Assembly (NCBI GenBank): GCA_002839315.1
Contig: PGXV01000005.1
Span: forward strand, 155,269 to 219,268
Direction of reading: 5' to 3'
Source: Spirochaetae bacterium HGW-Spirochaetae-3
GTDB taxonomy: Bacteria; Spirochaetota; Spirochaetia; Treponematales; UBA12059
Length of the DNA: 64,000 bases
Shown: in pieces, positions 18,574 through 40,952 of the stretch
Layout: each line of letters opens with the position of its first letter
How positions within the stretch are numbered: the first letter of the stretch is position 1
Program-made: the position numbers and the translations under genes
Notes under the pieces: model-generated
Databases searched by the model: none
The model's input: only the letters and a program-made list of their open reading frames with translations
What the model was told of the DNA's origin: nothing

Positions 18574-18645
18574 GGAATAATTCATGAGGATTAGCCGCTC
18601 GTTATGAGCGGGCGGCTTCTATATAAAATAAGAATAAGGAGATGA

Positions 18646-19272: not shown

Positions 19273-19330
19273 CTACACAAGCCACCTCTCCGGGGGCGGT
19301 AATAATCAAACGAAAAACAAGGAGAACAAT

Positions 19331-19791: not shown

Positions 19792-19866
19792 AATCCTTTC
19801 ATCTCCCTGAGAAATCCCTTCGGTACAGGGTTCTCTCAGGGAGACGAGTAATCATGAAGGAGCGAT

Positions 19867-20175: not shown

Positions 20176-20306
20176 TAATAATCTTTTCTAGTTTGTGAGA
20201 TGTTTTTCTCCGCTTATATTCAAAAACGACCTCTAAAAAAGGGACACTAATTAAACACGAAGGATAGCCATCACCTCCCCTTCATATGTATTTTTTAGTA
20301 TTTCAG

Positions 20307-20352
20307 CCTGATTATTCTTGCCGTGATGGGACGAGAATAATCGGGCTTTTTT
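20307..20352 (+). terminator. rho-independent terminator
   Basis: 12-bp stem CCTGATTATTCT / AGAATAATCGGG (one G-U pair) followed by CTTTTTT. Confidence 0.8.
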
Positions 20353-20452
20353 ATTCTCCTTATTGCTTCTTCCTCCTTCGTACATGCACCACGCAAGAGA
20401 TACTAAGGGGAATAAAAATTCTGCTTCAATACTGAGGGAAAATAGCTTTAGT

Positions 20453-20642
20453 AATAGGGAGAACTAAAGGAAGATAAGCAGACCATAAGAAGAAAAAACC
20501 CGTATTTACTTACTCTATATACTAATAATAGGGAGATAAGGAGATAAGGAGATATTCTTTATATTTCTTATATTGATATCAGTAATCCACATCTAAATAT
20601 CTCGAATGTTGGAGAATACGGTATTTTGCTTATCTCCCTATT
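20453..20642. repeat. iteron-like repeat cluster (candidate phage replication origin or regulatory region)
   Basis: AATAGGGAGATAAG at 20527-20540, and its perfect reverse complement at 20629-20642. GAGATAAG is repeated tandemly 2.8x at 20533-20554. A partial copy AATAGGGAGA lies at 20453-20462, with further GATAAG at 20473-20478. An A/T-only stretch separates the inverted copies. The region is immediately upstream of the replication protein gene. Confidence 0.5.
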
Positions 20643-20695
20643 CTGCTCACAACCTATTTGCCTATCAGTACTAAATTAAACAAGGAGACAATACA

Positions 20696-22090
20696 ATGTC
20701 TGAAAAAATTATCTTAGGGGCTATTACAGATGCAGAGACTTTCGTAACACAGTTTATTGAAGCGAGGAACGTCGAACCTGATTGCGCTGGGTTCGTATAC
20801 ACAGACGATTTTAATCTCCGCTCCTCAATAGAGGATTTAACGAATCTTGTTCAAGCGAGCTTCCTTCAGTCCACCCGATATGCTGAGTCACAGATCGCAA
20901 CTTTATATAGTGAGTGGAGTGGCAAGCAGAGTGAGTATGCTGTATCGCGACGGTTGAAGTATCTCGAGGATTCGGAAGAGGCAGACGGAGGCTATGGCAG
21001 AGTGAACAGTCAAGCGTGGCTGAAGGAGACTCAGAGTGCATTCGAGGCTAAGAATCCGGCTCCACCTAAAAACCTTCCAGAAGCTGTTCGTCGAAAAGGA
21101 ATGAAACTAGCAACACTTAAGGAACTCGAGATATTCTGCAACAGATACACAGCAGATCATGACACTCTATACTTAAACCAAATCCGATCTCGCATAGTGG
21201 AAGAGGGAGATTACGAGCAAGAACTGAAGGAGTTCCGAGAAAAGTTAAACCTAAACGATTTCGAATCTAAAGCTGTAGCTAAGTGGATTCAGAATATAAA
21301 GCGACGTGTTTTAGGTATCCCTACAGGTACTGAGTTTGCACTTATCCTTACCGGTGATCAAGGAACTGGAAAGTCCTTGTTTGCAAGTAACCTTACAGCA
21401 GCACTTGGAGATAGCGTTCGAAAGTTTAATGTTGAAGAGTTATCTGATAAGGATGTTATTGGAAATTGTGGTAGTACAGCAGTAATGATATTTGACGAAT
21501 TTAGAGTTACAGATAGAGTTGGCCTTGAGATACTTAAGAGAGCTATTACATTAACAAAGTATGACTATCGTCCGGCATACTCACGTTTAACAAAGAGTAT
21601 TAATTCAATCGCAAGTTTTATATGCTCTTCAAATGAGGAACTCTCTGATCTCGTAATAGATACAGAGAATAGACGGTTTATCCAAATTACATGGGACAAG
21701 CGACTCGAAGTAAAACACGAAAAAGTGTATGAATACTACAAAACCATAAATTGGAAATCGTTTTTTGATTCAGTTCCTATCGAGACGGATGTGTGGAGTG
21801 AAAAGGAATATATCGCTAAGGTAGATCTCGTTAAGACCAATGTAAAAGCAGACGAGTTCCGTGATTTCGCCAGAGCACAAAGATCTGAGTTACGATCGCT
21901 CTGTGTGGATGTGACCTGGATAGCAGCTGCTGACTTACTGTCGGCGTTTAATCGATACAGGAAAGAGCTGGGCTTAAGTTACTCGTATAGCTTTAAGACA
22001 TTGGCTAGGGATACGAAGATAACTGGATGTGAAAGAAAGATACTTAATCGATTCAGTTGCTACAATATAGCGAGTTTAATTGAGGAGTAA
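20696..22090 (+). CDS. phage replication protein, VirE / SF3-helicase-like P-loop NTPase
   Basis: Walker A LTGDQGTGKSLF and Walker B VMIFDEF in the C-terminal half. G-x-Q-G-x-GKS is the form seen in the VirE/primase-associated helicase family. 464 aa. Confidence 0.7.
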   Translation: MSEKIILGAITDAETFVTQFIEARNVEPDCAGFVYTDDFNLRSSIEDLTNLVQASFLQSTRYAESQIATLYSEWSGKQSEYAVSRRLKYLEDSEEADGGYGRVNSQAWLKETQSAFEAKNPAPPKNLPEAVRRKGMKLATLKELEIFCNRYTADHDTLYLNQIRSRIVEEGDYEQELKEFREKLNLNDFESKAVAKWIQNIKRRVLGIPTGTEFALILTGDQGTGKSLFASNLTAALGDSVRKFNVEELSDKDVIGNCGSTAVMIFDEFRVTDRVGLEILKRAITLTKYDYRPAYSRLTKSINSIASFICSSNEELSDLVIDTENRRFIQITWDKRLEVKHEKVYEYYKTINWKSFFDSVPIETDVWSEKEYIAKVDLVKTNVKADEFRDFARAQRSELRSLCVDVTWIAAADLLSAFNRYRKELGLSYSYSFKTLARDTKITGCERKILNRFSCYNIASLIEE

Positions 22091-22186
22091 GAAGCCGTAA
22101 ATAATCGGTCAACCTATTCCCAACCCCAGACTAATTACAGAGAAGATCGGGCCCCTACGGGGGCTTACTTCATTAAGGAGAATCTG

Positions 22187-22390
22187 ATGCTAGACACTAC
22201 ACCAGCTTGGTACGAACTTACCAACACGAAGACAGGGTACACATTCAAGATGTTCACACTTGAGGATATCAAGGCAAACTTCCTCGTTACACTTGCAGAT
22301 GCCGCCGCTGCATTTCGTGACAACGGATTGCTCACTGATAGACAGGGGCGAGAGTATCGATGCAGGGTTATCAGTCCTGGGAGAGAGTAA
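22187..22390 (+). CDS. hypothetical protein
   Basis: AAGGAG RBS, 67 aa. Confidence 0.55.
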   Translation: MLDTTPAWYELTNTKTGYTFKMFTLEDIKANFLVTLADAAAAFRDNGLLTDRQGREYRCRVISPGRE

Positions 22391-22391
22391 T

Positions 22392-22673
22392 ATGACACCA
22401 TCCTTTACACTACTTACTCTCCCTTCATGCGGTCCCTGTAAGGCGATGAAAAATATGTTAGAGGCAATTCAATATGAAGATAACATACAACTTCGATTCG
22501 ACTATGAGATCATCAATATTGAGAGACGAGATGACCTTGTGAAAGAGTATGAGGTCGACGGTGTCCCGGTTTTAATCTCCCCTACAGGGAAGACACTGAG
22601 ACATCTATTATCACGAGACCGACTACGAGCTTGGCTACAAGAAGAGATCAGCATTCTTAATGATAACCTTTGA
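22392..22673 (+). CDS. thioredoxin/glutaredoxin-fold protein (CGPC active site)
   Basis: From MTPSFTLLTLPSCGPCKAMKNML..: beta-strand then a C-G-P-C redox motif, with a cis-Pro region GVPVL. 93 aa. The longer ORF-track start (22260) overlaps the previous gene. Confidence 0.7.
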   Translation: MTPSFTLLTLPSCGPCKAMKNMLEAIQYEDNIQLRFDYEIINIERRDDLVKEYEVDGVPVLISPTGKTLRHLLSRDRLRAWLQEEISILNDNL

Positions 22674-22716
22674 ATGCCGCAGCGAGGCTGTTCGGTATGA
22701 GGGGTTCTAGGAGGAC

Positions 22717-22875
22717 ATGATGACTTTTACATTAAAACGAGATGGATCAGATCGAACGTTAATAACTGATAGTCCACTCAGCGTCGCATCTACACTTCGT
22801 ATCCCATTAACAATGATTATGAGAGTAGGCGAATCGATTAAGCGAAATAACTGGACAGCAAGGCGGATAGCATGA
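22717..22875 (+). CDS. small hypothetical protein (52 aa, below ORF-track cutoff)
   Basis: AGGAGG RBS 5 nt before ATG 22717; open for 52 codons. Confidence 0.35.
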   Translation: MMTFTLKRDGSDRTLITDSPLSVASTLRIPLTMIMRVGESIKRNNWTARRIA

Positions 22876-22997
22876 CGTTCGGCGAGCGATTGAGAGACCT
22901 TCTGTACGGCGACGAGACCGCGAGTACGGCTGCTATGTTAACAGATGAGGAAAGGCAGCAGATTGAAGAGTTCATAGGGCAAATTCGTCTATACTAA
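22872..22997 (+). CDS. small hypothetical protein (41 aa)
   Basis: ATGA overlap with the preceding small ORF. The stop lies inside an ACTAATTAAA motif copy. Confidence 0.3.
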   Translation: MTFGERLRDLLYGDETASTAAMLTDEERQQIEEFIGQIRLY

Positions 22998-23015
22998 TTA
23001 AACGTTCTCCTTATT

Positions 23016-23056
23016 GCCCGCTGGTGACGTATATGTCCTGGCGGGCTTTTTATTTT
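23016..23056 (+). terminator. candidate rho-independent terminator
   Basis: Stem GCCCGCTGG / CCTGGCGGGC (two G-U pairs) followed by TTTTTATTTT. Confidence 0.55.
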
Positions 23057-23069
23057 GTACTAACTACTC

Positions 23070-23396
23070 ATGAAAGAATCAACATTCAGCGAGCAGCACA
23101 GTAAGTTTAGGACGAGCAAGGAATGGAAAGCATTTCGCTTATCGATAATTGAAGAGCGACAGAAAAAATGTGAGTGTTGTGGGGTACAGAAAAATAATGC
23201 ATCGCGATTACAGCTTCATCATATCTTCCCGTTAGATTACACAAACTTATCTCCTGAACGATTCGCTCTCCTCTGTGCTAATTGCCATGCCGAGATAGAG
23301 CGTTTATCTAAACGTCTCAGAGGTAAGAAAGCGGGGACGATTGAGAACCTTGATGCGTGGATGGAATTATACGGACGATTTCTTCCGCACTACTAA
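23070..23396 (+). CDS. HNH endonuclease
   Basis: CECCGV...LQLHHIFP...CANCHAEIE is an HNH / zinc-finger arrangement. 108 aa. No obvious SD. Confidence 0.8.
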   Translation: MKESTFSEQHSKFRTSKEWKAFRLSIIEERQKKCECCGVQKNNASRLQLHHIFPLDYTNLSPERFALLCANCHAEIERLSKRLRGKKAGTIENLDAWMELYGRFLPHY

Positions 23397-23419
23397 TTAA
23401 ATAAGAGGGAGAAAGAAGG

Positions 23420-23776
23420 ATGACACAAGAAGAGATTCTAATTAACTACCCGGAACTCGCGGGAGCAGACCTTGGCGAGGTTAACGAGGCTATTGAGAGG
23501 TATCTAAGGATACAGGAAGAAGAGAGGTATGCAGCAGAGGACGCTATAAAATTGCAGCGGATACAAGAGGAAGCGAGGATTCAACAAGAGCGCTTTAGGA
23601 GAGTATCTGCCCTTGTCGACAAGATGGTTGAAGCGAGGAAAGAAAAAGCAGAGTCGAAAAACATTATTGTAAACGTCTATCTTGATCACGTTTATCTTGA
23701 TCGCCAGCTAACAGCCAAAGAGCTAGAAATAGCAATACGAGATGGAATTATAAACGCTGAGGCGTCTGGCTCATGA
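23420..23776 (+). CDS. hypothetical coiled-coil protein
   Basis: GAGGGAG..AAGG RBS, 118 aa, Glu/Arg-rich helical repeats. Confidence 0.6.
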   Translation: MTQEEILINYPELAGADLGEVNEAIERYLRIQEEERYAAEDAIKLQRIQEEARIQQERFRRVSALVDKMVEARKEKAESKNIIVNVYLDHVYLDRQLTAKELEIAIRDGIINAEASGS

Positions 23777-23880
23777 ACAGCATACAAGTAATCATTTTGA
23801 GCATGCTTGCAGTGCCAATCTACATAGCAGTGTTGAACGTACTACTACAACTTGGAGCTTATTTACAGAGGAAGAAGTAG
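23773..23880 (+). CDS. small hydrophobic protein (35 aa)
   Basis: ATGA overlap with the upstream gene. MNSIQVIILSMLAVPIYIAVLNVLLQLGAYLQRKK is a single predicted TM helix. Confidence 0.35.
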   Translation: MNSIQVIILSMLAVPIYIAVLNVLLQLGAYLQRKK

Positions 23881-23884
23881 GTCG

Positions 23885-23916
23885 AGGAGCCGGGGAGTTA
23901 TCCCAGCTCCTTTTTC
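23885..23916 (+). terminator. candidate terminator at the end of the early block
   Basis: Stem GGAGCcGGGG / TCCCaGCTCC followed by TTTTT. Sits between convergent genes. Confidence 0.5.
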
Positions 23917-23918
23917 TA

Positions 23919-24797
23919 TTATAAATCTTCTATACGGAGCAGTTCAGAGGGAATCTTAATAGTACTAGCCTGGACTTTCTTACCCTTAGTAGTGAGAGTC
24001 TTCCATAGTTCCTCGTTGCGGTAACTAATCACATCTGCTGGAGATTGGGCTATCTGTTTTCCCTTCTGCGTCTGCGTTGGCTTACTCAGCTTTAGGTAAT
24101 CTTTTGCGATTGCCTCGATATAAGCTTTATCGAGGATGGAATAATTTGCGATAGCTACACGGTACCGCGCTGTATTCTCCTCGATTGAGTATAAGCTACC
24201 ACCGGCCTTTACTAAGCCTATCATAATGTCAAGTTTTGGATTGTAGGATGTACATTCGGTAAATGCAATTTCAAGGTCCGAGAAAGAAGTTATGATGACA
24301 TACGTGCCGGTAATGAATATGTCCTTGTAGCTAACCAGCCGTTCCCAATTGATTACATCACCATACTTATCTGCGTAATTTGCAATCTGTGTAACAGTTG
24401 ACTCGGCGATGCTTGAATCACTAAATGATCCTGATACAAATGAACCAAATCCTGCGCTTATGATCGTTTCCTTTTTAATATATCTTCGACAGCGTTGTGC
24501 GTTAACAATTGATTGACTAACAAGCTTCGCGTTGTCAACAATTAGGGCAGGTATACCAAGCCTTTGTACTTTTCCATTAGCGCTGATAGAGTACACATTT
24601 CCAATTAGATCGTACGGGTTGATAGCGGCAACACCATAAGAGATTTTAAGTTGAAGTCCTTCGGTAGCGGGTAAATCAAGCTCGCTGCTTAATTTGGCTC
24701 CCTTTTTTTCGGTGAAGTTGACTGTCTGAGAATCTGTTGGTGTTTGTTTCTTTGTTGCTTTCTCAGATCCTTTTGGCTCTTTATCAGCTTTTGCCAT
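23919..24797 (-). CDS. reverse-strand moron protein, unknown function
   Basis: 292-aa ORF antiparallel to all neighbouring phage genes. AAGGAGG RBS. Has its own promoter candidate: TTGACT (24849-24844), 17 nt, CATAAC (24826-21). Lys-rich N-terminus. No motif recognised. Confidence 0.75.
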   Translation of the reverse strand: MAKADKEPKGSEKATKKQTPTDSQTVNFTEKKGAKLSSELDLPATEGLQLKISYGVAAINPYDLIGNVYSISANGKVQRLGIPALIVDNAKLVSQSIVNAQRCRRYIKKETIISAGFGSFVSGSFSDSSIAESTVTQIANYADKYGDVINWERLVSYKDIFITGTYVIITSFSDLEIAFTECTSYNPKLDIMIGLVKAGGSLYSIEENTARYRVAIANYSILDKAYIEAIAKDYLKLSKPTQTQKGKQIAQSPADVISYRNEELWKTLTTKGKKVQASTIKIPSELLRIEDL

Positions 24798-24909
24798 TTA
24801 GATCCTCCTTGCTTCAAATAGTTATGAATCTACTTATGTGAAAAGTCAATGGATTTATTACTTAACGGGTGTGTAGCCTAATGTTGATAAATGTTTACAC
24901 TAATTATAA

Positions 24910-25260
24910 ATGGTTAAATTCTATCTATGCCGTCACCCCGGTTGTCGCCAACGAATACCGATCATGGGGTACTGCATTAAGCATCAAGCACTACATCAAC
25001 CATTCGCAGCGCGAGTAGTAGCACCGACAGTCAACTGGCAACATCTATACAACTCAGCTCGATGGCGAAATGCTCGTAAGGCATTTTTAATCGAGCATCC
25101 ATACTGCGCGGTATGCGGAAGAGAAGCCACAATCGTTCATCACAGCATACCACATAGAGGTAACGAAGAGTTATTTTGGGATGAAGTGTATTGGGAACCA
25201 ATCTGTAAGCACTGCCACAGTAAAGAAACCTTAAAAGAAGAACGAGCGAGACGGAGCTAA
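24910..25260 (+). CDS. HNH endonuclease (terminase-associated type)
   Basis: CAVCGREATIVHHSIPHRGN...WEPICKHCHSKET. Located directly upstream of the terminase genes, as in HK97-like cos phages. Confidence 0.85.
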   Translation: MVKFYLCRHPGCRQRIPIMGYCIKHQALHQPFAARVVAPTVNWQHLYNSARWRNARKAFLIEHPYCAVCGREATIVHHSIPHRGNEELFWDEVYWEPICKHCHSKETLKEERARRS

Positions 25261-25369
25261 GAAGAGGTATATATGGGGGATAAAAAACAGGTGGTAATCT
25301 ACCTTATACCACCCCCCTCTCCCATTTTTTATATAAGTCAATTCACGGAATCTGACTCTTGGAGAATCA

Positions 25370-25993
25370 ATGCCACGGCCAAAAGTACCAACTGCTGAGA
25401 AAAAAAAGAAAGGAACTCTCGGCTCATACGATAAGGATAGAATCGACGATAGACTTCCAGCACTCATGAAAGAAGGAATTCCGAGCATTATCGTCCCCCC
25501 TGATAATGTACCTGTAGCGACGGAACCTGTTTGGTACCGTGTCTCTGGTCGGCTGTCAGCAGCAGGAATTTGGACTGACCTTGATATCGATTACTTAGTT
25601 CAAACATGCATCGAGTTAAACCAGCTCATCACTATAGATAAAGACATTGATCGTTATCGCTCGAAGATGGACGAGTATGAAAGTGCATTGAGCGAGGTAG
25701 AGAGTAGCGACCTAGAGGAAGCAGACAAATCGAATAGCATTAACCATCTGAGAAGTGAACTCGACTACTATCGTAACTGGTGGTCTAAGCTCTTAACAAA
25801 GCGTATGAATACATCAGCGTCATTCGTTAAGTATGCTTCTAAACTCGGAATGTCACCATCCGATAGAGCCGGATTGAAATTAGTTCTCGTTAGCGCAGAT
25901 AAGATAGAGAGAGACACTAAGCCGAAGAGCGCACTTCAGCGAGCGGCAACACGACCAGGACTACCTGTTATGGAGGTGGTCGATGGAAGTTGA
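25370..25993 (+). CDS. terminase small subunit (P27-family-like)
   Basis: N-terminus MPRPKVPTAEKKKKGTLG.. and the W..-L..G-D..L...C pattern resemble the P27 family. Position immediately upstream of TerL, overlapping it. Confidence 0.7.
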   Translation: MPRPKVPTAEKKKKGTLGSYDKDRIDDRLPALMKEGIPSIIVPPDNVPVATEPVWYRVSGRLSAAGIWTDLDIDYLVQTCIELNQLITIDKDIDRYRSKMDEYESALSEVESSDLEEADKSNSINHLRSELDYYRNWWSKLLTKRMNTSASFVKYASKLGMSPSDRAGLKLVLVSADKIERDTKPKSALQRAATRPGLPVMEVVDGS

Positions 25994-27749
25994 TAGAGTA
26001 TATCAATATGCAGATGACGTATTATCAGGAAAGATACTTGCGAATAAGTACATAAAACAAGTCTGTAAGAAGTTTCAGGCTGATCTCAAGCGCAAAGATG
26101 ATGAGTGGGAATACTATTTCTCTCCGGAAATCGCAGAAGAAGTGGTTTCTGTTTGTCAAACATTTAGGTTTTTTGAAGGATCAGTAGCTGGAGAGAAGGT
26201 TCATCTGCCTGATTGGCAAGTGTTTTTTGTAGCCAATATATATGGATGGCATCGAAGAAGTGATAATCAGAGACGCTACCGACGCTCTCTTCTTTATGTC
26301 GGAAGATATAATGCAAAAACATTCCTAACAGCCCTTCTTGCGCTATATGAACTCTTGACTGTGAAAAATGGGCTTGCCGTATCCGTCGCGACCTCTACGG
26401 AACAGGCTGAGCAAGTCCTTAATTATATGAAGAAGCTCGTAGGAGCAATGGATGGTGATCCCGATTTTCTTGATGATGCAGGTGATCCGTTACTTGAAGT
26501 CTACGATTCAGCTATCTACTGTCCAAGTCGAGGATCGAGTTACTGCACAAAATCATCATCCGTTCGTAAGTTGCAGGGCTTTCATCCAACACTGCTAATA
26601 GGCGACGAGATCGCTTCATACCCAGAAACATATCGAATTATAGATGTGATTGAGAGTGGAATGAAGCAGCAGGCCCCACGACCGCTAACGATATTCACAA
26701 CTACGGGCGATCAGAATATTCACTCCATTGGTTATAACGAGTTCGAAAAGGCAAAGAAGATTCTATCGGGCCGGTTTCCCGATGAGAGCTACTTTCCAAT
26801 GATCTACTGCATCGACGACAACGATAAGTGGGATGATATATCGATAATCGGGAAAGCGAATCCGAATCTTGGTATATCGGTATCTCTTGAGGAAATAAAG
26901 CAAGCTCTAAGTGATGTTAAAATGTATCATGATCCTGCGCAGGAGCTTGAGTACAGAGTAAAGACAGCCAACGTATTCGTTCCAGGGATCAAGGGCGGGT
27001 TTACTGATAAGGAAATACAGGCAGCTATCGATAACAGTAAAAAAAGAAAGTATAAAGACTACCTAACAGATGAATATCTTGCTACGTGCCCATGCGCTGG
27101 TGGAATAGATTTGTCGAAACGGTTCGATTTCACAGCGTATACGCTCTATTGGTACATAGCAGAAATCGATATGTATTACGCTCGACATAGGTTCTATATT
27201 CCAGAAGATCAAATTGCTGCAAAGATGAAGACAGATGCTACGGGAATTCGTAAGTGGATAGAGGACGGGTTTATCAAACCTACGCCGGGCAAATCGATAG
27301 ATTATCATTACTTGAAGAAGGATTTAGATGCAGACCTTCAGCAATTTTCGATACGGGAACTTGGATACGATCAACGATACTCTTCCGATCTGATAACCAC
27401 TTTAGAAAGCAAGTATCCAGACCTGCCAACAATACTAACAGCTATTCCGAATAGTCATCAGAAGCAGCATGAAAACCTCGGAGCATGGAGAGAGATACTC
27501 GTCAACGAGAAATTAATTGATGGCAATCCTGTATGGGCGTGGATGATGACGAATGCTTCGCTAACAAGTATTCACGGATTGTCTTTTGTAGAGAAGATCG
27601 GTGATACGGAAGCAGCGAAGAGTACAAAACGAATTGATGGTGTAGATACATCAATCCTGGCATTCAATAGTCTTCGCGGGGATTCAGGAGATGAAGGGGC
27701 TGGTGAAAAAGCGCTTAGTGATTTTCTCTCTTATCGGCTGTACCACTAA
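25983..27749 (+). CDS. terminase large subunit
   Basis: 588 aa. ATPase Walker-B-like LLIGDEIASY and a C-terminal nuclease region. Synteny TerS-TerL-portal. Confidence 0.9.
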   Translation: MEVDRVYQYADDVLSGKILANKYIKQVCKKFQADLKRKDDEWEYYFSPEIAEEVVSVCQTFRFFEGSVAGEKVHLPDWQVFFVANIYGWHRRSDNQRRYRRSLLYVGRYNAKTFLTALLALYELLTVKNGLAVSVATSTEQAEQVLNYMKKLVGAMDGDPDFLDDAGDPLLEVYDSAIYCPSRGSSYCTKSSSVRKLQGFHPTLLIGDEIASYPETYRIIDVIESGMKQQAPRPLTIFTTTGDQNIHSIGYNEFEKAKKILSGRFPDESYFPMIYCIDDNDKWDDISIIGKANPNLGISVSLEEIKQALSDVKMYHDPAQELEYRVKTANVFVPGIKGGFTDKEIQAAIDNSKKRKYKDYLTDEYLATCPCAGGIDLSKRFDFTAYTLYWYIAEIDMYYARHRFYIPEDQIAAKMKTDATGIRKWIEDGFIKPTPGKSIDYHYLKKDLDADLQQFSIRELGYDQRYSSDLITTLESKYPDLPTILTAIPNSHQKQHENLGAWREILVNEKLIDGNPVWAWMMTNASLTSIHGLSFVEKIGDTEAAKSTKRIDGVDTSILAFNSLRGDSGDEGAGEKALSDFLSYRLYH

Positions 27750-27768
27750 TTAGAAATAGGAAACACCA

Positions 27769-28998
27769 ATGGCATTATTTAACCGTAAGAAATCCTTTGA
27801 TCCGCAATCATACTTTAGCACCATCATTCTTCCCTATATCCGGTCGTACCCGTTAAAAATGAATTCAACCGTTAGCGCGATCTTGGATGCAATAGCAACA
27901 ACGTACGCTACGTTAGGGCTGGGTCTCTACAATATCGAAACAGGGATGCCGGTACTACCCGGTGAGCATCCTCTAGCAGCGCGGCTTAATCAACCGAACA
28001 GTAGAGAAGGCCCTTCGCAGCTCATGTATAAGATGGCATATCAATACAAGCTAACCGGTAATGTGTTTCTGCTCTATACCGATAAAAGCTCACTAAATGT
28101 CCTAGACTCATCGAGCATTGAAGTAGATCGCAGCTCAGTATTGCCACGATATATAGATAGGATAAACCATAAAGTGTACTCCGACGCGGAGGTGGCGCAT
28201 ATATTCGACCCGCGATACGACGATGGAATTATTGGGCACTCGGCACTTGAGATAAATAAGGACGCAGTTGATCGGCTAAACATATTGCAGCTATATCAAG
28301 ATTTGTACTTCAAAAACACAGCGGGTGAGCGGCTCATCATTAACTTAGACCCAGACATGACAAAGATGCTACTTAAAGATGATAAAAAGAAAGTGTTTGA
28401 CGCGTTTGTGCAAGCAAATTTACTAGGCCCTCTTAACGCTGGTAAGCCAGCTCTCGCTCCAACAGGATCAAAAATCGAATTGATAAAGCAGACTACAAGT
28501 CTGGAGTCACAAGTAGAACTATCAAAAGACAGTCTGAAAAAAGATGTTGCGAACGTACTCGCGTGTCCGCACTACATGATTACTGGTGAATATGGAAACA
28601 ATCTTGACGAGCAGCAAACCGTGTACTTCCGTAGGTCAATATTATCAATGTCAGATATTCTCGGTGAGGGGCTCAACCATTTTCTAACTCCAAGCGAGAG
28701 ACGCAAGTTTAACTTTAAGCACGACTTCGGCAACCTGCTTTACCCAAGCACTGAGAAACTGTCTGCTATGCTTCTAAAAGAAATACGTGGTGGAGTCAGG
28801 ACAAGGAATGAAGCAAGAAAGATTCTAGGTCTCTCACCGTACATCGGTGAACAGACAGAGGTCGGCGACGTGCTTGCATGGGAAGCAAACCTTGTACCAG
28901 CGCTAAACGAATATCTTCCCCTCTACTTTGCCAATGCTCAGAAAACAATCAATGACGATAAAGAGAAGGCAGAGAACGCCAATCCTAACACAAAATAA
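27769..28998 (+). CDS. portal protein (HK97 family)
   Basis: 409 aa between TerL and the prohead protease. Sequence character is typical of HK97-type portals. Confidence 0.85.
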   Translation: MALFNRKKSFDPQSYFSTIILPYIRSYPLKMNSTVSAILDAIATTYATLGLGLYNIETGMPVLPGEHPLAARLNQPNSREGPSQLMYKMAYQYKLTGNVFLLYTDKSSLNVLDSSSIEVDRSSVLPRYIDRINHKVYSDAEVAHIFDPRYDDGIIGHSALEINKDAVDRLNILQLYQDLYFKNTAGERLIINLDPDMTKMLLKDDKKKVFDAFVQANLLGPLNAGKPALAPTGSKIELIKQTTSLESQVELSKDSLKKDVANVLACPHYMITGEYGNNLDEQQTVYFRRSILSMSDILGEGLNHFLTPSERRKFNFKHDFGNLLYPSTEKLSAMLLKEIRGGVRTRNEARKILGLSPYIGEQTEVGDVLAWEANLVPALNEYLPLYFANAQKTINDDKEKAENANPNTK

Positions 28999-29027
28999 AG
29001 TGACACTAATTAAACGGAGAATAAATA

Positions 29028-29819: not shown

Positions 29820-29833
29820 AACAGGAGATTATC

Positions 29834-30922: not shown

Positions 30923-30972
30923 CCAATAACGGGAGGGGAGAAATCTTCTCCCGTAATTTAATAAACGCTCTT

Positions 30973-31029
30973 GAAGCGGGTTTATCGGAAGTTACCTCCT
31001 TCGTCCGATTACCCGCTTCTCTTTTCTTC
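30973..31029 (+). terminator. long hairpin / candidate terminator after the capsid gene
   Basis: Outer stem GAAGCGGGT / ACCCGCTTC followed by TCTTTTCTT. A smaller hairpin ACGGGAG/CTCCCGT lies at 30929-30954. Confidence 0.55.
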
Positions 31030-31051
31030 CACTAATTAAAGGGAGAATAGA

Positions 31052-32053: not shown

Positions 32054-32055
32054 TA

Positions 32056-32508
32056 ATGGATTTTGAAAAAGTAGTTGATGATATTAAGACCTATATCGAG
32101 ACACAGTTTCCGATTGCACTCGCTGCTATTGAGGTTGCGAAGCCCGATATTGTCCTGGGTAAACCGGACTTATATCTGCTCGACTATCCAGACACAGGCA
32201 GGCAGCAAGCCGTTGTCTTCTTTATTTATCCAGATGAATGGGAGTTTAGCCAGGTCTCGAATGTCAGCCGTGAAATGGCAAATAGCATTCACTTGTTCAC
32301 AACGTTCAAAGGAACATCACCAGCGCTCGTTAAGAAAATTCTTAGATATATGGAAGCACTCTACTCAACACTAACTACAGATGACACGTTAGGTAATGCG
32401 GTAGAGCAAAGCGAGATATCGTCTGCTAGCTGGTATAAGGCTATTGAAGCCTCGGCAGATACGAAAGCAATAGAAGTAGTTCTTCGTGTTTCAACGCTCG
32501 TTCACTAA
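32056..32508 (+). CDS. hypothetical tail-completion/terminator-position protein
   Basis: 150-aa ORF in the slot preceding the major tail gene. No motif recognised. Confidence 0.55.
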   Translation: MDFEKVVDDIKTYIETQFPIALAAIEVAKPDIVLGKPDLYLLDYPDTGRQQAVVFFIYPDEWEFSQVSNVSREMANSIHLFTTFKGTSPALVKKILRYMEALYSTLTTDDTLGNAVEQSEISSASWYKAIEASADTKAIEVVLRVSTLVH

Positions 32509-32530
32509 TTAAATAATAGAGGAGACCGTT

Positions 32531-33490
32531 ATGAATGGTAATAAGGTAATAGTACAGTACGGAGTGGAAGAAACATACGGAACCGTTGGTACAGCGACGA
32601 AGCAAATAGAGATTGCGAGTGAATCGTTTAAGCTCAATCTTAACAAAAAAGAGGAAGGGCTATTAACCGGAAAGGCTGTAGGTGGTCGTGTTCGTACTGT
32701 TAGTAAGAGCATTGATGGTGGTTTTAAGACACTTGTACGTCCCGATGATATTGGTCTTTTTCTGGCCGCAGCACTTGGGGAAGAAGCGAGTGTTACTGTG
32801 GTGCCGTCATCGACAGCCGCGTATAAACATGATTTTACAATTACAGACGAAGATGTACTCCCATCTCTCTTCTTCAAGGTAAAGAGAGATTCAACTGTTG
32901 TTAAATCATATTCAGGTTTAGCGGTAGATAGTATTAACTTTGATTCATCCGCAGAAGATTATCTAAACGTAGATATAACGTTTGTTGGTAAGGATGAGGA
33001 GGATGATGACCTTGAAACAGGATTATCTAACAGCCCACTCGATACACTTAGATTCGCTGGAACTACTCTAACAGTAGGTGGTACCGCACTTGAAGTATCC
33101 TCGACTAAGTTTAGCTATTCAAACAATCACGACGCTAAGACACAGACCAATCTAACAGGCCTGTATTTCAAGCAGCCTGAAGTTGGTCAGCGAGACATAA
33201 CCGTAGAGCTTGAAGCAATATATGACTCGGTATCAAACGGAGTTCGCGATTCGTATTGGCTAACGGATAGCGATGTTGCAGTCTCTATTAAGTTTGTAAG
33301 CAGAGAAGAGGTTGAAGAGGGGTATCCGTACTCACTTACATTCACCTTGCCGCTGTGCCAAGTAACTGAAGCAACGGTTAATATTTCAGGTAAAGATAGA
33401 GTGAAGCTACCATTGAAACTCAAGCTCGTTGATGACACCGGATTCAAGGTATCACTCGTTAACGGACTTGCGACTAAGTATATCGTATAA
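32531..33490 (+). CDS. major tail protein (by position)
   Basis: 319 aa, strong AGAGGAG RBS. Lies immediately upstream of the frameshifting chaperone pair and the tape measure. Confidence 0.6.
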   Translation: MNGNKVIVQYGVEETYGTVGTATKQIEIASESFKLNLNKKEEGLLTGKAVGGRVRTVSKSIDGGFKTLVRPDDIGLFLAAALGEEASVTVVPSSTAAYKHDFTITDEDVLPSLFFKVKRDSTVVKSYSGLAVDSINFDSSAEDYLNVDITFVGKDEEDDDLETGLSNSPLDTLRFAGTTLTVGGTALEVSSTKFSYSNNHDAKTQTNLTGLYFKQPEVGQRDITVELEAIYDSVSNGVRDSYWLTDSDVAVSIKFVSREEVEEGYPYSLTFTLPLCQVTEATVNISGKDRVKLPLKLKLVDDTGFKVSLVNGLATKYIV

Positions 33491-33506
33491 ATAGGAGGAA
33501 GGAGAA

Positions 33507-33860
33507 TTGAAAGCATCTGATTTTGAGAAGCAGTATATTGTTGAATCGAAATTCGAGTTCGAAGGTACTGATGGATACATTAAGCTGCGTGAGCCTACGG
33601 AAGATGAACTGCTTGAACTTGGACAGGGTAAGGATGATGAGACAAAGATAACAAAACACATTCTTACAAAACTCGTTCCAGCATGTCTAGTTGAACATAA
33701 CTTCGAGCATGATGATGGTACGTCTCTCGGTAATGATGAAGTTGTTACGCTCTTAAAGAAATCTGGTCAAAAGATTAACAGAACTATCAAGCAATGGTTT
33801 GAGGCATTTAGCGACTCAATCGAACCGGCAGCAGAAGAGAAAGATACTAAAAAAAAGTAA
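33507..33860 (+). CDS. tail assembly chaperone (short, zero-frame product)
   Basis: TTG start after AGGAGGAAGGAG. 117 aa, acidic. Ends ..DTKKK* within the slippery A-run. Confidence 0.7.
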   Translation: MKASDFEKQYIVESKFEFEGTDGYIKLREPTEDELLELGQGKDDETKITKHILTKLVPACLVEHNFEHDDGTSLGNDEVVTLLKKSGQKINRTIKQWFEAFSDSIEPAAEEKDTKKK

Positions 33861-34141
33861 AGACACAATGGGCGATAGAGCGACAAGAATTACGCGACGT
33901 CGCCCAGATTCTTTTTAGCGGCGGTCTAATCCCGTCAGACCTACAGCACACTTATAAAAAATGGCAATTCTTCTTCAAGCTCTTCTATCGAATTATAGAT
34001 TGTGAAAACGGTAATTACCTTCGTGACCCTACACAGAACCCACCATATGACCAACCAGCAAAGACGATGATGATTCTAGACACGCTTCGTGATCTTTGGC
34101 GTGAGAAATTGCAGAAAGAAAACAATGCACGAATGAATTAA
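33507..34141 (+). CDS. tail assembly chaperone, long form made by -1 programmed frameshift at 33851-33857
   Basis: The -1 frame is open for 95 codons from 33854 to TAA 34139-34141 (translated by hand, no stop). It has no start codon of its own and ends 14 nt before the tape measure ATG. Confidence 0.65.
33851..33857 (+). promoter_or_regulatory. slippery heptamer A_AAA_AAG (-1 ribosomal frameshift site)
   Basis: Zero-frame codons are ACT AAA AAA AAG TAA. The heptamer is identical to the dnaX-type shift site. A GC stem TGGGCGA / TCGCCCA (33869-33875 / 33900-33906) begins 12 nt downstream. Confidence 0.65.
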
Positions 34142-34155
34142 AAACAGGAATAACC

Positions 34156-36282
34156 ATGGCAAGCGTAACCTACAAAATTAATGGAAAGGCAGATAACTCG
34201 GCAATCGATTCTGCAAAGAAAGGACTTCAGTCGTTAGGACAAGTTGCCAGTGGTGTTCAAAAAATATTTACAGGCTTCCTTGCGATAAAAGCCGTTCAGA
34301 TGGTTTCAAAAGGAATCGGCGATACCCTCTCAGCATATCAAACTCAACAGAAAGCAATATCTCAATTAACACACGCGGTATCTAACAACGCTAATCTAAC
34401 AAGTGCATCACTAAAACGAATAATCGACTATACAGGTAAACTTCAAGGCAATAGTATCTTCGGAGACGAGACGCTTCAAGGACAAGCAACGCTACTCGCG
34501 GGCATGCAGCTTACTGAAGATCAAATTAAAAACGTATTGAAAGCGGCAACTGAATTAACATCTGCCGGTATAGGAACTCTCGAAGGTAACGTTAAGAACC
34601 TCTCTAAACAATTCGGAGGAATGACCGGCGAACTTGGAGAGAGTCTACCTGCGTTAAAAAGATTCAGTAAAGAAGCGTTAATGGCTGGTGAAGGCGTTGC
34701 CTTCGTTGCCAAACAATACGCCGGATTTGCGGCGAACCTAGCTAATAACACTCTCGAAGGTAAGCAAAATAAAATAGGCAATCTGCTCAGTGACATTCAA
34801 GAGAAAATTGGCGCGTTATTTGCGATAGGTAAGATTAGTCTGTTCGATAATCTTGAGCCGTTACTGATTAAGATCAACGACTACTTAGCAACGATGCTTC
34901 CGAAGATTGCGAGTTTCTTCATTAACCTGCCGACGATGGCGTCTATTGCATTCGATACCGTTATGCAACTTGCCAAGCGGATATTTACTATTCAATTTGC
35001 ATTCGACCTGTTAAAAAATCTAGCCGGATACATTATCGATGTATTCAAGGCAACGTTCGAAACACTTTTTAATATCATCTATGCGATTTCTAATACCCTT
35101 GTTGCCCCGATTAAATATGCATTCGATTCGCTCGTCTATGGTGTACAGCTGTTATTCACAAACATGTTCAACGGCCTCATGTCGGGGGTTGAAGGCGTAG
35201 TGAACTTCATCCTGTCTGGTGTTAACAAGTTAATTGGAGCAATCAATAAAGTATCAACTTTCTTAAAACAAGGTGACATCTTATCGGAAATAAAAGATAT
35301 CAAGATTACTGCCACGTTACCAAAGCCTGTCGATTTCAGACAAGACCCAGTGAAGTCAATTGGCGATGGATGGAAAGGTGTTGGAACAAGTCTACTATCA
35401 ACGGTAAAGACAATCGGAGAATCTTATTTAACACACACGTCAGCTGTCGGTGAATCTCTTTCGCCAATGCTTGCCGAATTCGTAAACAAGATTGAAGCAT
35501 TAATAGATACATTGCCAGGTTGGGCCAAAGACATCTTTGCCCCAGCTATTGGGGAAGCGGTATCTGTTAGCCAGTCAGGATCGAGCGATGCAGGAGCATC
35601 TGCATCGAGTGGTGGTGGATTCAGCCTATTCGGTGGCGCGGATATGTCACCACTATCATTATTAATGGATGCAATCTCGCCGCTCATTGATATGTTTATG
35701 TCATTAAGCTCGTTGCAGATGATAATGGATCCGTTAATGATAGTATTTAAGGGAATATTTAGTGTACTAAGCCCTATCATAGACTCACTGCTCACACCGT
35801 TAATTGGGATATTTACGATTATCGGGCAGACAATCGGAAAAGTGTTATCGCCGCTATTAATAGCACTGACACCAATTATTGAAATTATTACGAATGGATT
35901 TATCTTCCTCTATAACTATGCAATACGACCATTAGCCAACTCTATCATCTGGGTCGTATCAACAATCTATAACATGGTAGCCAATCTCGTTAACGCTGTT
36001 GTCTCAGCGCTAAATCACATACCGTTTGTTAATATCAAATGGAAAATGGCAACAATGAGTTATGACTCGCTAAAGCTCGATGCCATTACTTCAAAAGATG
36101 TAAGTTCGGCGGGTACAACGGCCGTCGATAGTGCCGCTTCAAGTACGTCAGCGTCGTATACAGGACCTTCGACAATAAATATTTATATCAACTATACGAA
36201 TAGCTACGTTAATGGAGACGCGAGAGAAATAGCACTTAATATTAGACAAGAGATACAGACAGCCGAGGCAATGGGATACTGA
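34156..36282 (+). CDS. tail tape measure protein
   Basis: 708 aa, long helical N-terminal part and Gly/Ala/Ile/Leu-rich hydrophobic segments. Canonical position after the chaperone pair. Confidence 0.85.
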   Translation: MASVTYKINGKADNSAIDSAKKGLQSLGQVASGVQKIFTGFLAIKAVQMVSKGIGDTLSAYQTQQKAISQLTHAVSNNANLTSASLKRIIDYTGKLQGNSIFGDETLQGQATLLAGMQLTEDQIKNVLKAATELTSAGIGTLEGNVKNLSKQFGGMTGELGESLPALKRFSKEALMAGEGVAFVAKQYAGFAANLANNTLEGKQNKIGNLLSDIQEKIGALFAIGKISLFDNLEPLLIKINDYLATMLPKIASFFINLPTMASIAFDTVMQLAKRIFTIQFAFDLLKNLAGYIIDVFKATFETLFNIIYAISNTLVAPIKYAFDSLVYGVQLLFTNMFNGLMSGVEGVVNFILSGVNKLIGAINKVSTFLKQGDILSEIKDIKITATLPKPVDFRQDPVKSIGDGWKGVGTSLLSTVKTIGESYLTHTSAVGESLSPMLAEFVNKIEALIDTLPGWAKDIFAPAIGEAVSVSQSGSSDAGASASSGGGFSLFGGADMSPLSLLMDAISPLIDMFMSLSSLQMIMDPLMIVFKGIFSVLSPIIDSLLTPLIGIFTIIGQTIGKVLSPLLIALTPIIEIITNGFIFLYNYAIRPLANSIIWVVSTIYNMVANLVNAVVSALNHIPFVNIKWKMATMSYDSLKLDAITSKDVSSAGTTAVDSAASSTSASYTGPSTINIYINYTNSYVNGDAREIALNIRQEIQTAEAMGY

Positions 36283-36284
36283 TA

Positions 36285-39608: not shown

Positions 39609-39609
39609 T

Positions 39610-40137
39610 ATGGCATTATCAAATGAAAAACTATATTACCGACGATCAGGTATTACCGAATCTGTTAATACTTATACAGCATTATCAGATGTAGGAACCG
39701 AGGCATTAAAAGTAAGAGTAAATGGAGCCGACAGATATATTGCATTAGGAGATGAGACAGATTCTAAAAAGTCTTTTTTGCGTATAAGAAAGAATGGAAT
39801 AATAAAGGCTATACTAAAATCAGTAATAGATTATGTTGGATCATGGACGTTAATAGTAACTACTAACTATAATGCTTATCGATATTGGACTGTCTATTTT
39901 GATTATGACAAAGTGTTTAGTGAAAGTGATATGACCAACTTTAAGTTTGTAGGTAATATGCTCAATACCAAATACAAAATAGATGGTGTCGAATATACTG
40001 CAACAACTACACTTGTTAATGGAATGTATGTAACTGAACGAAAGCATAGATTAACAACTGGTAATCATACTATTGGCTTAACTGCTACATTGGTTTTTAG
40101 CACGTCGTCGTCCGCATCTGCTTACCGTGTAGTATAA
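39610..40137 (+). CDS. hypothetical tail-associated protein
   Basis: 175 aa, start 1 nt after the upstream stop. Same very AT-rich composition as the tail tip gene. Confidence 0.55.
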   Translation: MALSNEKLYYRRSGITESVNTYTALSDVGTEALKVRVNGADRYIALGDETDSKKSFLRIRKNGIIKAILKSVIDYVGSWTLIVTTNYNAYRYWTVYFDYDKVFSESDMTNFKFVGNMLNTKYKIDGVEYTATTTLVNGMYVTERKHRLTTGNHTIGLTATLVFSTSSSASAYRVV

Positions 40138-40168
40138 CTAATATATAGAATGGAGATTTAAAAATAGT

Positions 40169-40459
40169 ATGAATGATAATGACAAGGTCTTAGAGTATAT
40201 ACAAAAAATATTTGATGTAAAATTTGAAGGATTGAATACTCGTCTTGATAGTATAGAGCAAACACTGTCTATAAACCATACGGAACTAAAAGGTAAAGTA
40301 GATGACCATGAAAAAAGACTCACAACCATAGAATCAAAAAATGAAAAGAATGATAAAGATATTTTTATAAATGAATTTAAAAAAGAGGTAATACACTGGT
40401 CTATACCGGCGCTATTTGGATTGATTTTAATTGGTATTAAGTCAAAGCTTGGATCATAA
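40169..40459 (+). CDS. tail-anchored coiled-coil membrane protein, lysis-cassette paralogue A
   Basis: 96 aa. N-terminal helical region (VLEYIQKIFDVKFEGLNTRLD..NH) and a C-terminal TM (IHWSIPALFGLILIGI). Paralogous to 40953-41243. Confidence 0.6.
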   Translation: MNDNDKVLEYIQKIFDVKFEGLNTRLDSIEQTLSINHTELKGKVDDHEKRLTTIESKNEKNDKDIFINEFKKEVIHWSIPALFGLILIGIKSKLGS

Positions 40460-40460
40460 T

Positions 40461-40928
40461 ATGTATCTACAAAACAATCCTGCATTACTACCACAAATAC
40501 AACGAGTAGGCTGTCTTCACTTATCTATGCTTTGTATGATCGAATTATGGGCTGATGTTGAGATCAGTATTGATGATGTAAACACTATCTGGACAATGGC
40601 AAAGCAACGAACATTCCTTCGTAACGATGGCTATATGCGAGACATGGATGGAGTATTGAAGCTGGCGAAACAGGCACTAGGATTTGCAAAACCAATATTT
40701 ACTGTTGGGATTATAGAAGACAGGAAAACGGTGTATTGGGATTGGACAAAAAACTATCCAGAACTACAGCAAACAGCGTATAAGATCGAAACGTTGAAAA
40801 CATTCGGCAAGACTGGAACGCACTTCGTACTGTGCGATAAAGACGGAGAACTGATATTTGACAGCTACTCCTTTAAGCCGTATAGGTTTGAGCATATTGG
40901 GCGCTATCACTTATTCAATCACTACTAA
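40461..40928 (+). CDS. candidate endolysin, papain-like (C39/DUF261-like) cysteine peptidase
   Basis: 155 aa from MYLQNNPALLPQIQRVGCLHLS... The Gln-x5-Cys arrangement at the start of a helix plus a downstream GTHFVLCD His is compatible with clan-CA peptidases. Located in the lysis cassette. Assignment is tentative. Confidence 0.45.
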   Translation: MYLQNNPALLPQIQRVGCLHLSMLCMIELWADVEISIDDVNTIWTMAKQRTFLRNDGYMRDMDGVLKLAKQALGFAKPIFTVGIIEDRKTVYWDWTKNYPELQQTAYKIETLKTFGKTGTHFVLCDKDGELIFDSYSFKPYRFEHIGRYHLFNHY

Positions 40929-40952
40929 TTGAATAACAAGGATGTAAAAATA

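Follow-up and report, generated by a model that had tools for sequence, protein, structure and literature searches.

A strand-specific ACTAAYT motif at the gene boundaries of spirochaete prophages, best read as a new promoter consensus

The window analyzed here is a stretch of 64,000 nucleotides from Spirochaetae bacterium HGW-Spirochaetae-3 (contig PGXV01000005.1), and the subject of this analysis is a short motif with the core ACTAAYT that recurs on one strand at the gene boundaries of a resident prophage. The element in the window is an HK97-like prophage of 40-45% GC inside a 65% GC spirochaete contig, where the AT-rich stretch extends over roughly 14.4-45.6 kb with 32-47% GC between flanks (1-14 kb and 46-64 kb) of 58-70% GC. 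Its genes begin with a large serine integrase (14830-16416) and a PadR-like regulator, followed by an early operon, a primase/helicase-like gene, two HNH endonuclease genes, the small and large terminase, portal, a ClpP-type protease, an HK97-type capsid, an adaptor, tail genes, a DUF261 lysin-like gene and RadC. A protein of Spirochaetae bacterium HGW-Spirochaetae-3 matches the large terminase at 100% identity. We describe the distribution of the motif in this prophage and in its relatives, its geometry relative to start codons, upstream sequences and terminators, and the reasons for taking it as a probable new promoter consensus that a clade of spirochaete phages has in common.

Copies of the motif in the prophage

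The initial annotation of this DNA had listed six exact copies of ACTAATTAAA on the plus strand and had estimated by hand that about 0.1 copies per strand would occur by chance. All six copies are present where they had been listed, with none on the minus strand of the window, and the computed expectations are 0.03 copies in whole-window shuffles and 0.087 per strand in a second-order Markov model of the AT-rich island alone. A complex 10-mer reached six copies in only one of 300 Markov simulations. The 8-mer ACTAATTA is likewise found nine times on the plus strand and never on the minus strand where 0.72 copies are expected, which makes it the most over-represented complex 8-mer of the AT-rich island. 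Thus the motif is strand-specific (6:0 and 9:0) and not equally frequent on both strands. The five near copies described earlier (20670, 22130, 24899, 27745 and 40924), as well as the start codons linked to the motif and the two terminator hairpins downstream of it, are also as described, and we add a variant copy at 23059 and a copy internal to a gene at 32370 (Table 1). The late-region copies of the window share the core cACTAATTAAA. Both exact and two-mismatch scans found no copy at a gene start in 33 kb of 65% GC host flank, and the early operon of the prophage, which extends up to 20175 and has strong Shine-Dalgarno sequences, is motif-free.

Table 1. Motif copies, upstream boxes and hairpins in the window
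Feature	Position	Strand	Context
Motif cACTAATTAAAC, no upstream box	20246..20256	+	First copy past the motif-free early operon; followed by a structured unit, no gene
Short structured stretch	20257..20352	+	Small 5' hairpin with CACCUCCCC in its loop, then strong terminator hairpin and U-run
AACCTA box (-35-like)	20651..20656	+	13 nt 5' of variant copy 20670
Variant copy ACTAAATTAAAC, one extra A inserted	20670..20681	+	5' of Shine-Dalgarno sequence and ATG 20696 (primase/helicase-like gene)
AACCTA box	22111..22116	+	13 nt 5' of copy 22130
Motif ACTAATTACAG	22130..22140	+	Followed by 5' hairpin, Shine-Dalgarno sequence and ATG 22187
Motif ACTAATTAAAC	22993..23003	+	TAA is the stop of the 41-aa open reading frame 22872-22997; terminator follows, no gene
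Terminator hairpin and U-run	23016..23056	+	Between copies 22993 and 23059; -21.1 kcal/mol, z-score -5.2
Variant ACTAACTACTC, absent from the initial annotation	23059..23069	+	ATG of first HNH gene (23070-23396) at position 12, no Shine-Dalgarno sequence
Motif ACTAATTAAAT	23392..23402	+	TAA is the HNH gene stop; 5' of Shine-Dalgarno sequence and ATG 23420
Motif ACTAATTATAA	24899..24909	+	ATG 24910 of second HNH gene at position 12, no Shine-Dalgarno sequence
Motif ACTAATTAGAA	27745..27755	+	Large terminase-portal junction; TAA is the terminase stop
Motif ACTAATTAAAC	29005..29015	+	Between portal stop (28998) and protease gene
Terminator-like hairpin and U-run	30973..31030	+	After capsid gene, directly 5' of copy 31031; ACCUCCUUC in loop
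Motif cACTAATTAAAG	31031..31041	+	Head-tail adaptor gene; predicted start 31042 would give mRNA 5'-GGAGAAUAGA-AUG
Internal copy ACTAACTACAG, absent from the initial annotation	32370..32380	+	Within gene 32056-32508
Motif cACTAATTAAAT	32504..32514	+	TAA is the stop of gene 32056-32508; 5' of Shine-Dalgarno sequence and ATG 32531, major tail (tube-like) gene
Motif ACTAATTGAAT	40924..40934	+	TAA is the stop of the DUF261 lysin-like gene; 5' of Shine-Dalgarno sequence and ATG 40953

Conservation in related phages

Relatives of the prophage were reached through protein homologues (terminase, primase and integrase) on metagenomic contigs, with a primase match in the viral collection as a further route; one of them (L010) is a prophage in a Treponema genome bin that came from a terminase profile scan of the genome collection. 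Searches for close relatives of the large terminase in the genome and viral collections, and of the portal protein, returned no match. Eight further phages or prophages of this kinship (L001, L003/L004, L005, L006, L007, L008, L026 and L010) have the core ACTAAYT on one strand at their gene boundaries, and the check for conservation among relatives thus comes out in favor of the motif. The large terminases of these motif carriers are 31-74% identical to that of the window, and the two hosts that are known for this phage group are both spirochaetes. For example, L001 has 11 copies on the plus strand and none on the minus strand with cACTAATTATAA as its late-region core, L006 has a ratio of 7:0, all six copies of L005 lie on the coding strand of its leftward late operon, and L007 has 12 copies on the plus strand plus one on the minus strand that faces a leftward operon. 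The sequence varies somewhat among phages, with L008 using mostly the ACTAACT variant and L010 the form aataACTAACT. Fifteen other terminase relatives (L009 and L011-L025) contain 0-3 copies of ACTAATT and 0-4 copies of ACTAACT per strand, which is background without a consistent strand bias, and none of the four of these control relatives that were examined has a motif of its own.

Pooled over eight phages and 142.5 kb there are 97 copies of ACTAAYT, 60 of which are intergenic and face the next gene while nine overlap the stop codon of the upstream gene. This places 69 of the 97 copies at gene boundaries in sense orientation, even though intergenic DNA makes up only 17% of the pooled sequence; the rest consists of 20 copies in sense and six in antisense orientation within coding sequence and two others, with eight copies being antisense or otherwise misoriented. 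The motif is therefore concentrated at gene boundaries and not in gene interiors. The initial annotation had put weight on the internal TAA of the motif, which serves as the stop codon of the upstream gene and leaves proteins ending in His or Tyr. These C-terminal endings are real, and the motif does supply the stop codon of five window genes, but this role does not hold across the clade, where the upstream gene mostly has a stop codon of its own (TAA, TAG or TGA) a few bases 5' of the motif. That the motif can double as a stop codon follows from the presence of TAA in two of its reading frames, and the supply of stop codons is a by-product.

One copy within coding sequence is itself conserved. 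Orthologues of the gene at 32056-32508 in L006, L007 and L008 also contain a copy (at 8573, 16863 and 13281, respectively) located 100-140 nt before the stop codon, and since the copy is in a different frame in each phage its conservation is at the nucleotide level. From its location, copy 32370 may be an internal, second promoter for the major tail (tail tube) gene.

A comparison of the window with L001 shows that conservation of the motif does not depend on homology of the genes next to it. These two phages share only the HNH, small terminase and large terminase proteins (54-74% identity), and their portals, proteases (ClpP-type in the window versus S78 in L001) and capsids are unrelated, yet both phages carry the motif before these genes. 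Their homology ends exactly at a motif copy (window 27745 and L001 5360), which forms an island of identity of 13 of 14 bases.

Start codons, upstream box and terminators

With the A of ACTAAYT numbered as position 1, and start codons considered within 60 nt downstream, the location of start codons relative to the motif is bimodal. They fall either at position 12 (six genes) or 14 (one gene), or else between positions 22 and 36. The seven starts at positions 12 and 14 (window 23070 and 24910; L001 2511 and 7009; L006 69; L007 15516 and 13088) have no Shine-Dalgarno-like tetramer, and all starts at 22-36 have a Shine-Dalgarno sequence. Nothing credible occurs at positions 15-21, as the one start called at position 18 is followed in frame by an ATG at position 24 that GAGAGG precedes. 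A Shine-Dalgarno sequence is thus absent from 7 of 7 genes that start at position 12 or 14 versus 21 of 162 other genes (Fisher p = 1.7e-6). Four later cases, L026 14067 at position 12 and L010 8610, 12813 and 16171 at position 11, bring the total to 11 genes without a Shine-Dalgarno sequence at positions 11-14, seven of which are at position 12. The layout can be the same in different phages; for example, L001 2500/2511 matches window copy 24899 with its ATG at 24910. There is also a compositional signal, as 45 of 46 copies have a purine at position 12 (A in 37 and G in 8), compared with 39% of copies at position 11 and 48% at position 13.

This geometry is what would be expected if messages began at position 12, four bases after the 7-mer. 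The gap at positions 15-21 is then expected because leaders of 3-9 nt would be too long for leaderless translation and too short to hold a Shine-Dalgarno sequence plus a spacer. The predicted starts in the window would be 20257, 23070, 24910, 27756, 29016, 31042 and 32515, with 29016 being the first G of GGAGA and the predicted first base at copy 31031 likewise the first G of GGAGA. Two kinds of transcript would arise, one that begins a few bases before a Shine-Dalgarno sequence and the other that begins exactly at the ATG. An example of the latter is the HNH gene at 23070-23396, for which this spacing predicts a leaderless mRNA.

Several of the genes predicted to be leaderless encode HNH or GIY-YIG endonucleases. 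One of the genes at position 12, L026 14067-14387 (106 aa), is missing from the source annotation, for which its lack of a Shine-Dalgarno sequence is the probable reason. L007 contains two tandem HNH genes (8399-8815 and 8942-9358), both without a Shine-Dalgarno sequence, whose identical upstream sequences point to a recent duplication. In the host flank of the window (3640-3690, minus strand) a TTGACA-17-TATACA promoter lies 5 nt before the ATG of a 517-aa open reading frame, which suggests that leaderless mRNAs are made by the host as well, from an ordinary promoter of the sigma-70 type.

A second conserved element lies upstream of a subset of copies. The sequence AACCT(A/T) occurs exactly 14 nt 5' of the motif at L003 2788 and 1686(-), L007 5214, 6257, 6518 and 4751(-), L008 5211, 4024(-) and 3207(-), and L026 9037(-), and 13 nt 5' of copy 22130 and variant copy 20670 in the window. 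In a histogram of AACCT offsets there are ten sites at one offset and one at the neighboring offset (one base less), compared to an expectation of 0.13 per offset. The boxed copies are confined to early or replication regions. In the divergent control regions of L007 and L008, where iteron-like repeats are found as well, copies of both orientations have the box. An element of the -35 type at a fixed spacer from a -10-type element is therefore found for early and replication-region copies only, and the late-region copies have no box and a longer conserved core (cACTAATTAAA or cACTAATTATAA). A bipartite match in the host flank (window 3801, minus strand) was not counted, since it is a Shine-Dalgarno sequence in reverse complement.

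At least 15 late copies have a hairpin and U-run directly 5' of the motif, an arrangement that would constitute terminator-promoter cassettes. At the window copy 31031, for example, the fold of 30923-31030 has -42 kcal/mol with a z-score of -5.5. The reverse order also occurs, with the motif followed by 50-100 nt of structured RNA and a U-run at window 20246 and 22993, at L001 2403 and at the terminase-portal junctions of L005, L006, L008 and L026. The hairpin at these junctions (L005 4776-4700 on the minus strand, L006 3950-4022, L008 8680-8752 and L026 17803-17876) is fully paired (100%) across the four phages; five of its pairs show compensatory changes, and its apical loop, which is invariant, holds the anti-Shine-Dalgarno-like UUCCUCCC. 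In the window, the stretch at 20257..20352 has a minimum free energy of -32.7 kcal/mol (z-score -5.0, with 0 of 200 shuffles as stable), which makes it a candidate small RNA or attenuator, and a single-stranded CUCCUUA precedes the terminator hairpin at 23016..23056. The CU-rich stretches in the terminator units of the window (CACCUCCCC, CUCCUUA and ACCUCCUUC) resemble anti-Shine-Dalgarno sequences. The hairpins adjacent to the motif could be small RNAs, attenuators or elements that mask Shine-Dalgarno sequences. A search of Rfam gave no match in the window.

The prophage also has a promoter of an ordinary type. The sequence TTGACA-17-TAAAAT at 16391-16419, before the PadR-like gene next to the integrase, is the best sigma-70-type match with 11 of 12 positions, and sigma-70-type matches in window 16000-35900 are somewhat fewer (27) than in shuffled sequence (38.4, standard deviation 5.9). 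The motif itself does not fit recognition by a housekeeping sigma-70, as its invariant C aligns with A(-11) and its upstream box is AACCT, not TTGACA. The existence of separate TTGACA-type promoters, together with the motif-free early operon, is an argument that the motif needs a different specificity factor.

A proposed dedicated promoter class and its alternatives

We consider it probable that the motif is a promoter, a signal for the start of transcription, and not a stop-codon or ribosome signal. What points to a promoter rather than to an RNA or translation signal is the combination of a bipartite element with a fixed spacer, a purine and ATGs without Shine-Dalgarno sequences at a fixed distance, copies in divergent orientation, and placement after terminators. 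The initial annotation had offered four roles, namely an RNA processing site, a binding site for a phage translational or antitermination factor, a phage-specific promoter element and a stop/reinitiation signal; of these, the promoter element is the one that we retain, and the others are not favored. The motif would constitute the -10-type core, (c)ACTAAYT with a purine or A-rich extension, of a dedicated promoter class that is used by a clade of HK97-like temperate siphoviruses of spirochaetes. The early and replication form would be bipartite, with AACCT(A/T), a spacer of 14 nt (13 nt in the window) and ACTAAYT. The form that serves the virion and lysis genes would do without the box and often directly follow an intrinsic terminator, such that the resulting cassettes would split the late genes into separate units. 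Leaderless transcripts would be made for HNH and GIY-YIG endonuclease genes in particular, and copies before terminators would drive small RNAs or attenuators that present an anti-Shine-Dalgarno sequence. In the window, where the early operon lacks the motif, this would fit a cascade in which host sigma-70 serves the early operon and a second specificity factor takes over afterward.

Of the explanations that do without a promoter, the one that fares best is that ACUAAYU is an RNA processing site, read by a host or phage endoribonuclease in polycistronic RNA that is cut 4 nt downstream to leave 5' ends at position 12. Such cleavage would account for the strand specificity, the position at gene boundaries, the bimodal start distance and the copies adjacent to terminators, and it would yield leaderless mRNAs and detach terminator hairpins from neighboring genes. 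We nevertheless regard it as unlikely, since it leaves unexplained both the AACCT box at a fixed 14-nt spacing (10 sites versus 0.13) and the opposed copies of divergent control regions, which no transcript from upstream would be expected to cover. Known RNases with sequence specificity (the MazF family and RegB, for example) cleave within the site that they recognize, and the sequence around position 12 does not match the preference of RNase E.

Rated lower still is a role as stoperators, in which an immunity repressor would bind the motif and block prophage transcription in the manner of the L5 repressor of cluster A mycobacteriophages. Stoperators are 13-mers that are bound by the cognate repressor and that differ between immunity groups (PMC9283540). 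The resemblance in layout is considerable, as both are numerous, asymmetric, located in short intergenic spaces and oriented with transcription (cf. PMC9283540), as is the case for 69 of the 97 copies here, and the window phage is a temperate siphovirus with an integrase and a PadR-like regulator. However, repressor specificities normally diverge with immunity group, whereas one and the same 7-mer is kept here by phages between which no common protein could be detected in the early and regulatory regions. There is hence no sign that site and repressor covary, with the motif identical and the early regions unrelated, and the conserved repressor that this explanation predicts was not found. Operators would also be expected in the early region of the window, which is motif-free, and repression gives no reason for the starts without Shine-Dalgarno sequences at positions 11-14, the purine at position 12, the fixed AACCT box or, more generally, a fixed geometry to start codons.

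A signal at the level of translation, be it an mRNA enhancer, a Shine-Dalgarno substitute or a stop/re-initiation element, appears very improbable. The motif is A/U-rich, lies 1-7 nt before the Shine-Dalgarno sequence or abuts starts that have none, and supplies the stop codon of the five window genes, all of which a translational element might do. On the other hand, just 9 of 97 copies overlap a stop codon, some copies precede terminators with no gene following, a Shine-Dalgarno-like element would give a single spacing and not a bimodal one, and translation has no role for a box 14 nt upstream that often overlaps terminators or coding sequence. No complementarity to the standard rRNA 3' end was found, and the window contains no rRNA gene. 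The same evidence bears on the analogy to the start-associated sequences of cluster K mycobacteriophages that had been drawn earlier. Those are 13-bp sequences, GGGATAGGAGCCC, that contain a Shine-Dalgarno core, lie 3-7 bp from the start and precede non-structural genes only (PMC3203893). Both are asymmetric repeats in one orientation 5' of the starts of unrelated genes, sometimes hold the upstream stop codon and are absent from the host. The analogy does not stand, however, because our motif has no AGGAG or other Shine-Dalgarno core, being located instead 5' of a separate Shine-Dalgarno sequence or abutting an ATG without one. The starts here are at position 12 or 22-36, and copies precede structural genes as well as others (portal, protease, adaptor, tail tube and lysis genes).

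Least probable is that the motif is only a recombination linker, a patch of short homology for module exchange without a role in expression, for although the homology of the window and L001 breaks off at a motif copy that forms an identity island and the PeSL composite terminator/promoter cassettes of T4-like phages are reported to act in this manner (PMC4122927), 7-11 bases are very short for homologous exchange and the strand bias relative to genes, the start-codon geometry and the upstream box would go unexplained. More likely, a conserved promoter would incidentally allow modules to be exchanged at the motif, as has been proposed for PeSLs.

Several known promoter systems resemble the proposed class. 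The sigma factor gp47 of Salmonella phage 7-11 reads GTAAtg-(16)-aCTA and gp36 of phiEco32 recognizes tAATGTAtA as a single element; transcription in both cases starts 6-9 bp away from the element (PMC8948821). As here, these late promoters are short conserved elements that serve many genes in one phage group and that come in a bipartite and a single -10 form; moreover, the 'aCTA' of 7-11 equals the first four bases of the motif and the start that we infer is 8 nt after ACTA. They differ in belonging to virulent podoviruses with a recognizable sigma gene and mapped starts, whereas the phages considered here are small temperate siphoviruses in which a sigma gene was not detected and starts are deduced from sequence. 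Their box also reads AACCT(A/T) instead of GTAAtg, with a spacer of 14 instead of 16 nt.

Promoters of the extracytoplasmic function (ECF, group 4) sigma factors include GGAACTT-N16-TCAAA for E. coli sigma-E and the 'hrp box' GGAACC-N15/16-CCACNNA for HrpL. These have in common with our motif an 'AAC(C)' box near -30 to -35, an invariant C in a short -10 element and a fixed spacer, and many copies read (c)cACTAA, which is compatible with the CCACNNA of HrpL. However, our motif has a spacing that is shorter by 1-2 nt and a longer stretch of conservation at -10 (7-11 nt), the box is missing from most late copies, and neither a cognate sigma nor an anti-sigma factor was found. The late promoters of T4, TATAAATA, are read by gp55 together with gp33 and gp45. 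They are likewise single AT-rich -10-type elements that have no -35 and that are repeated before many late genes, but their sequence is different, the phages are unrelated and without a gp55, gp33 or clamp homologue, and the bipartite early form exists here. Finally, PeSL cassettes (PMC2839356, PMC4122927) consist of a stem-loop terminator followed by a conserved promoter, are intergenic and lie at mosaic junctions. The same arrangement is found here in at least 15 copies, with a mosaic junction at the terminase-portal copy, though the likeness is architectural only, as PeSLs contain sigma-70-type early promoters in the hyperplastic regions of large myoviruses and our cassettes contain a non-sigma-70 motif in the late operon of small siphoviruses. 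We also considered, and gave up, a likeness to T7/T3 promoters (CACTAAAGGGAGA), as no open reading frame is fit to encode a single-subunit polymerase. Literature searches for the motif string gave chance matches only (primers and an unrelated KP34 promoter flank), and those for Treponema promoter or ECF consensus data gave nothing usable.

In its geometry the motif is like the promoters of ECF and phage sigma factors, with an 'AAC' box at about -30, a -10 element whose C is invariant and a predicted start some 8 nt past ACTA, and we therefore infer that its reader is a bacterial RNA polymerase with a non-housekeeping specificity factor. A number of points weigh against a promoter. The over-representation, strand bias, position, conservation, upstream box and start-codon geometry are observed directly, whereas the start at position 12 and the kind of factor that reads the motif are deduced from the statistics of sequence. 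Neither a sigma factor nor an RNA polymerase, RNase or late activator was detected by Pfam or PHROGs in early and accessory open reading frames of the window, L007, L008, L001 and L010, so that no cognate reader was found among the phage reading frames searched. The orphan reading frames of the window are without homologues from which an alignment could be built, and none is an obvious candidate for the reader. A sensitive all-against-all comparison of the early regions of 8 of the 9 phages found no early protein that the window shares with the others; the only shared early protein is a metallophosphatase, present in L001, L003, L007, L008 and L026 and lacking in the window. In both divergent operons of L007 and of L008 the motif already stands before the first gene, which is awkward for a factor made by the phage. 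The copies that are followed by terminators (window 20246 and 22993, L001 2403 and the four terminase-portal junctions) need an extra assumption. In addition, the C at the A(-11) position excludes a standard sigma-70 reading, and we know of no characterized sigma factor that reads ACTAAYT.

If the motif is a promoter, our first though tentative candidate for its reader is an alternative sigma factor of the host. The retention of the motif across unrelated early regions and on the first genes of the L007 and L008 operons leans in this direction. A factor encoded by the phage ranks next and is a similarly tentative choice. Identities between phage sigma factors may be as low as 15% (PMC8948821), so a cryptic phage factor is possible. 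Something other than these two is a rather unlikely reader. One may go further and combine the various threads, and propose that AT-rich temperate phages of GC-rich spirochaetes run nearly all of their units from a private ECF-like code, AACCTW-N14-ACTAAYT, that is read by a host alternative sigma or an over-divergent phage factor. The prophage would then be gated by availability of this factor and not by a classical repressor acting at each promoter, homing endonucleases would be made from leaderless mRNAs, and some copies would drive small RNAs with terminator loops that expose the invariant anti-Shine-Dalgarno sequence UUCCUCCC. Taken as a whole, this composite is speculative and we would rate it as doubtful.

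Knowledge of gene expression in spirochaete phages is very sparse, and the phages considered here are all uncultured. A promoter code that is shared at 31-74% terminase identity would allow operons to be annotated, including unannotated leaderless genes such as L026 14067, and the motif might help to assign metagenomic phage contigs to their hosts. DNA with the motif could serve as bait for the sigma-like reader and, if this reader is a host alternative sigma factor, activation of the prophage would be tied to a host stress pathway. Additionally, terminator-promoter cassettes would provide a simple physical explanation for the swapping of modules in these genomes.

Some further features of these prophages were observed. 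The window prophage (14.4-45.6 kb) and the L026 prophage (7.3-18.7 kb, against a flank at 1-7 kb) have about 33-45% GC in hosts of 58-65% GC, a gap between prophage and host that is very large for temperate phages. These two prophages also share a context in which an IclR regulator is followed by a single-stranded DNA-binding protein (SSB) gene on the minus strand and the serine integrase, and they differ in their early regions. Iteron-like direct repeats are present 5' of replication genes at window 20400-20560, within the 520-bp gap before the primase/helicase gene, and include 3.4 tandem units of ATAAGGAG at 20528-20554. L008 has five iteron-like copies of cctatagcttatctcttc at 4860-4960, also 5' of replication genes, and the repeat regions of both phages are probable replication origins. 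The lysis-region protein encoded at window 40431-40928 has a Pfam match to DUF261, which we take to be a family known from Borrelia, in agreement with a spirochaete host.

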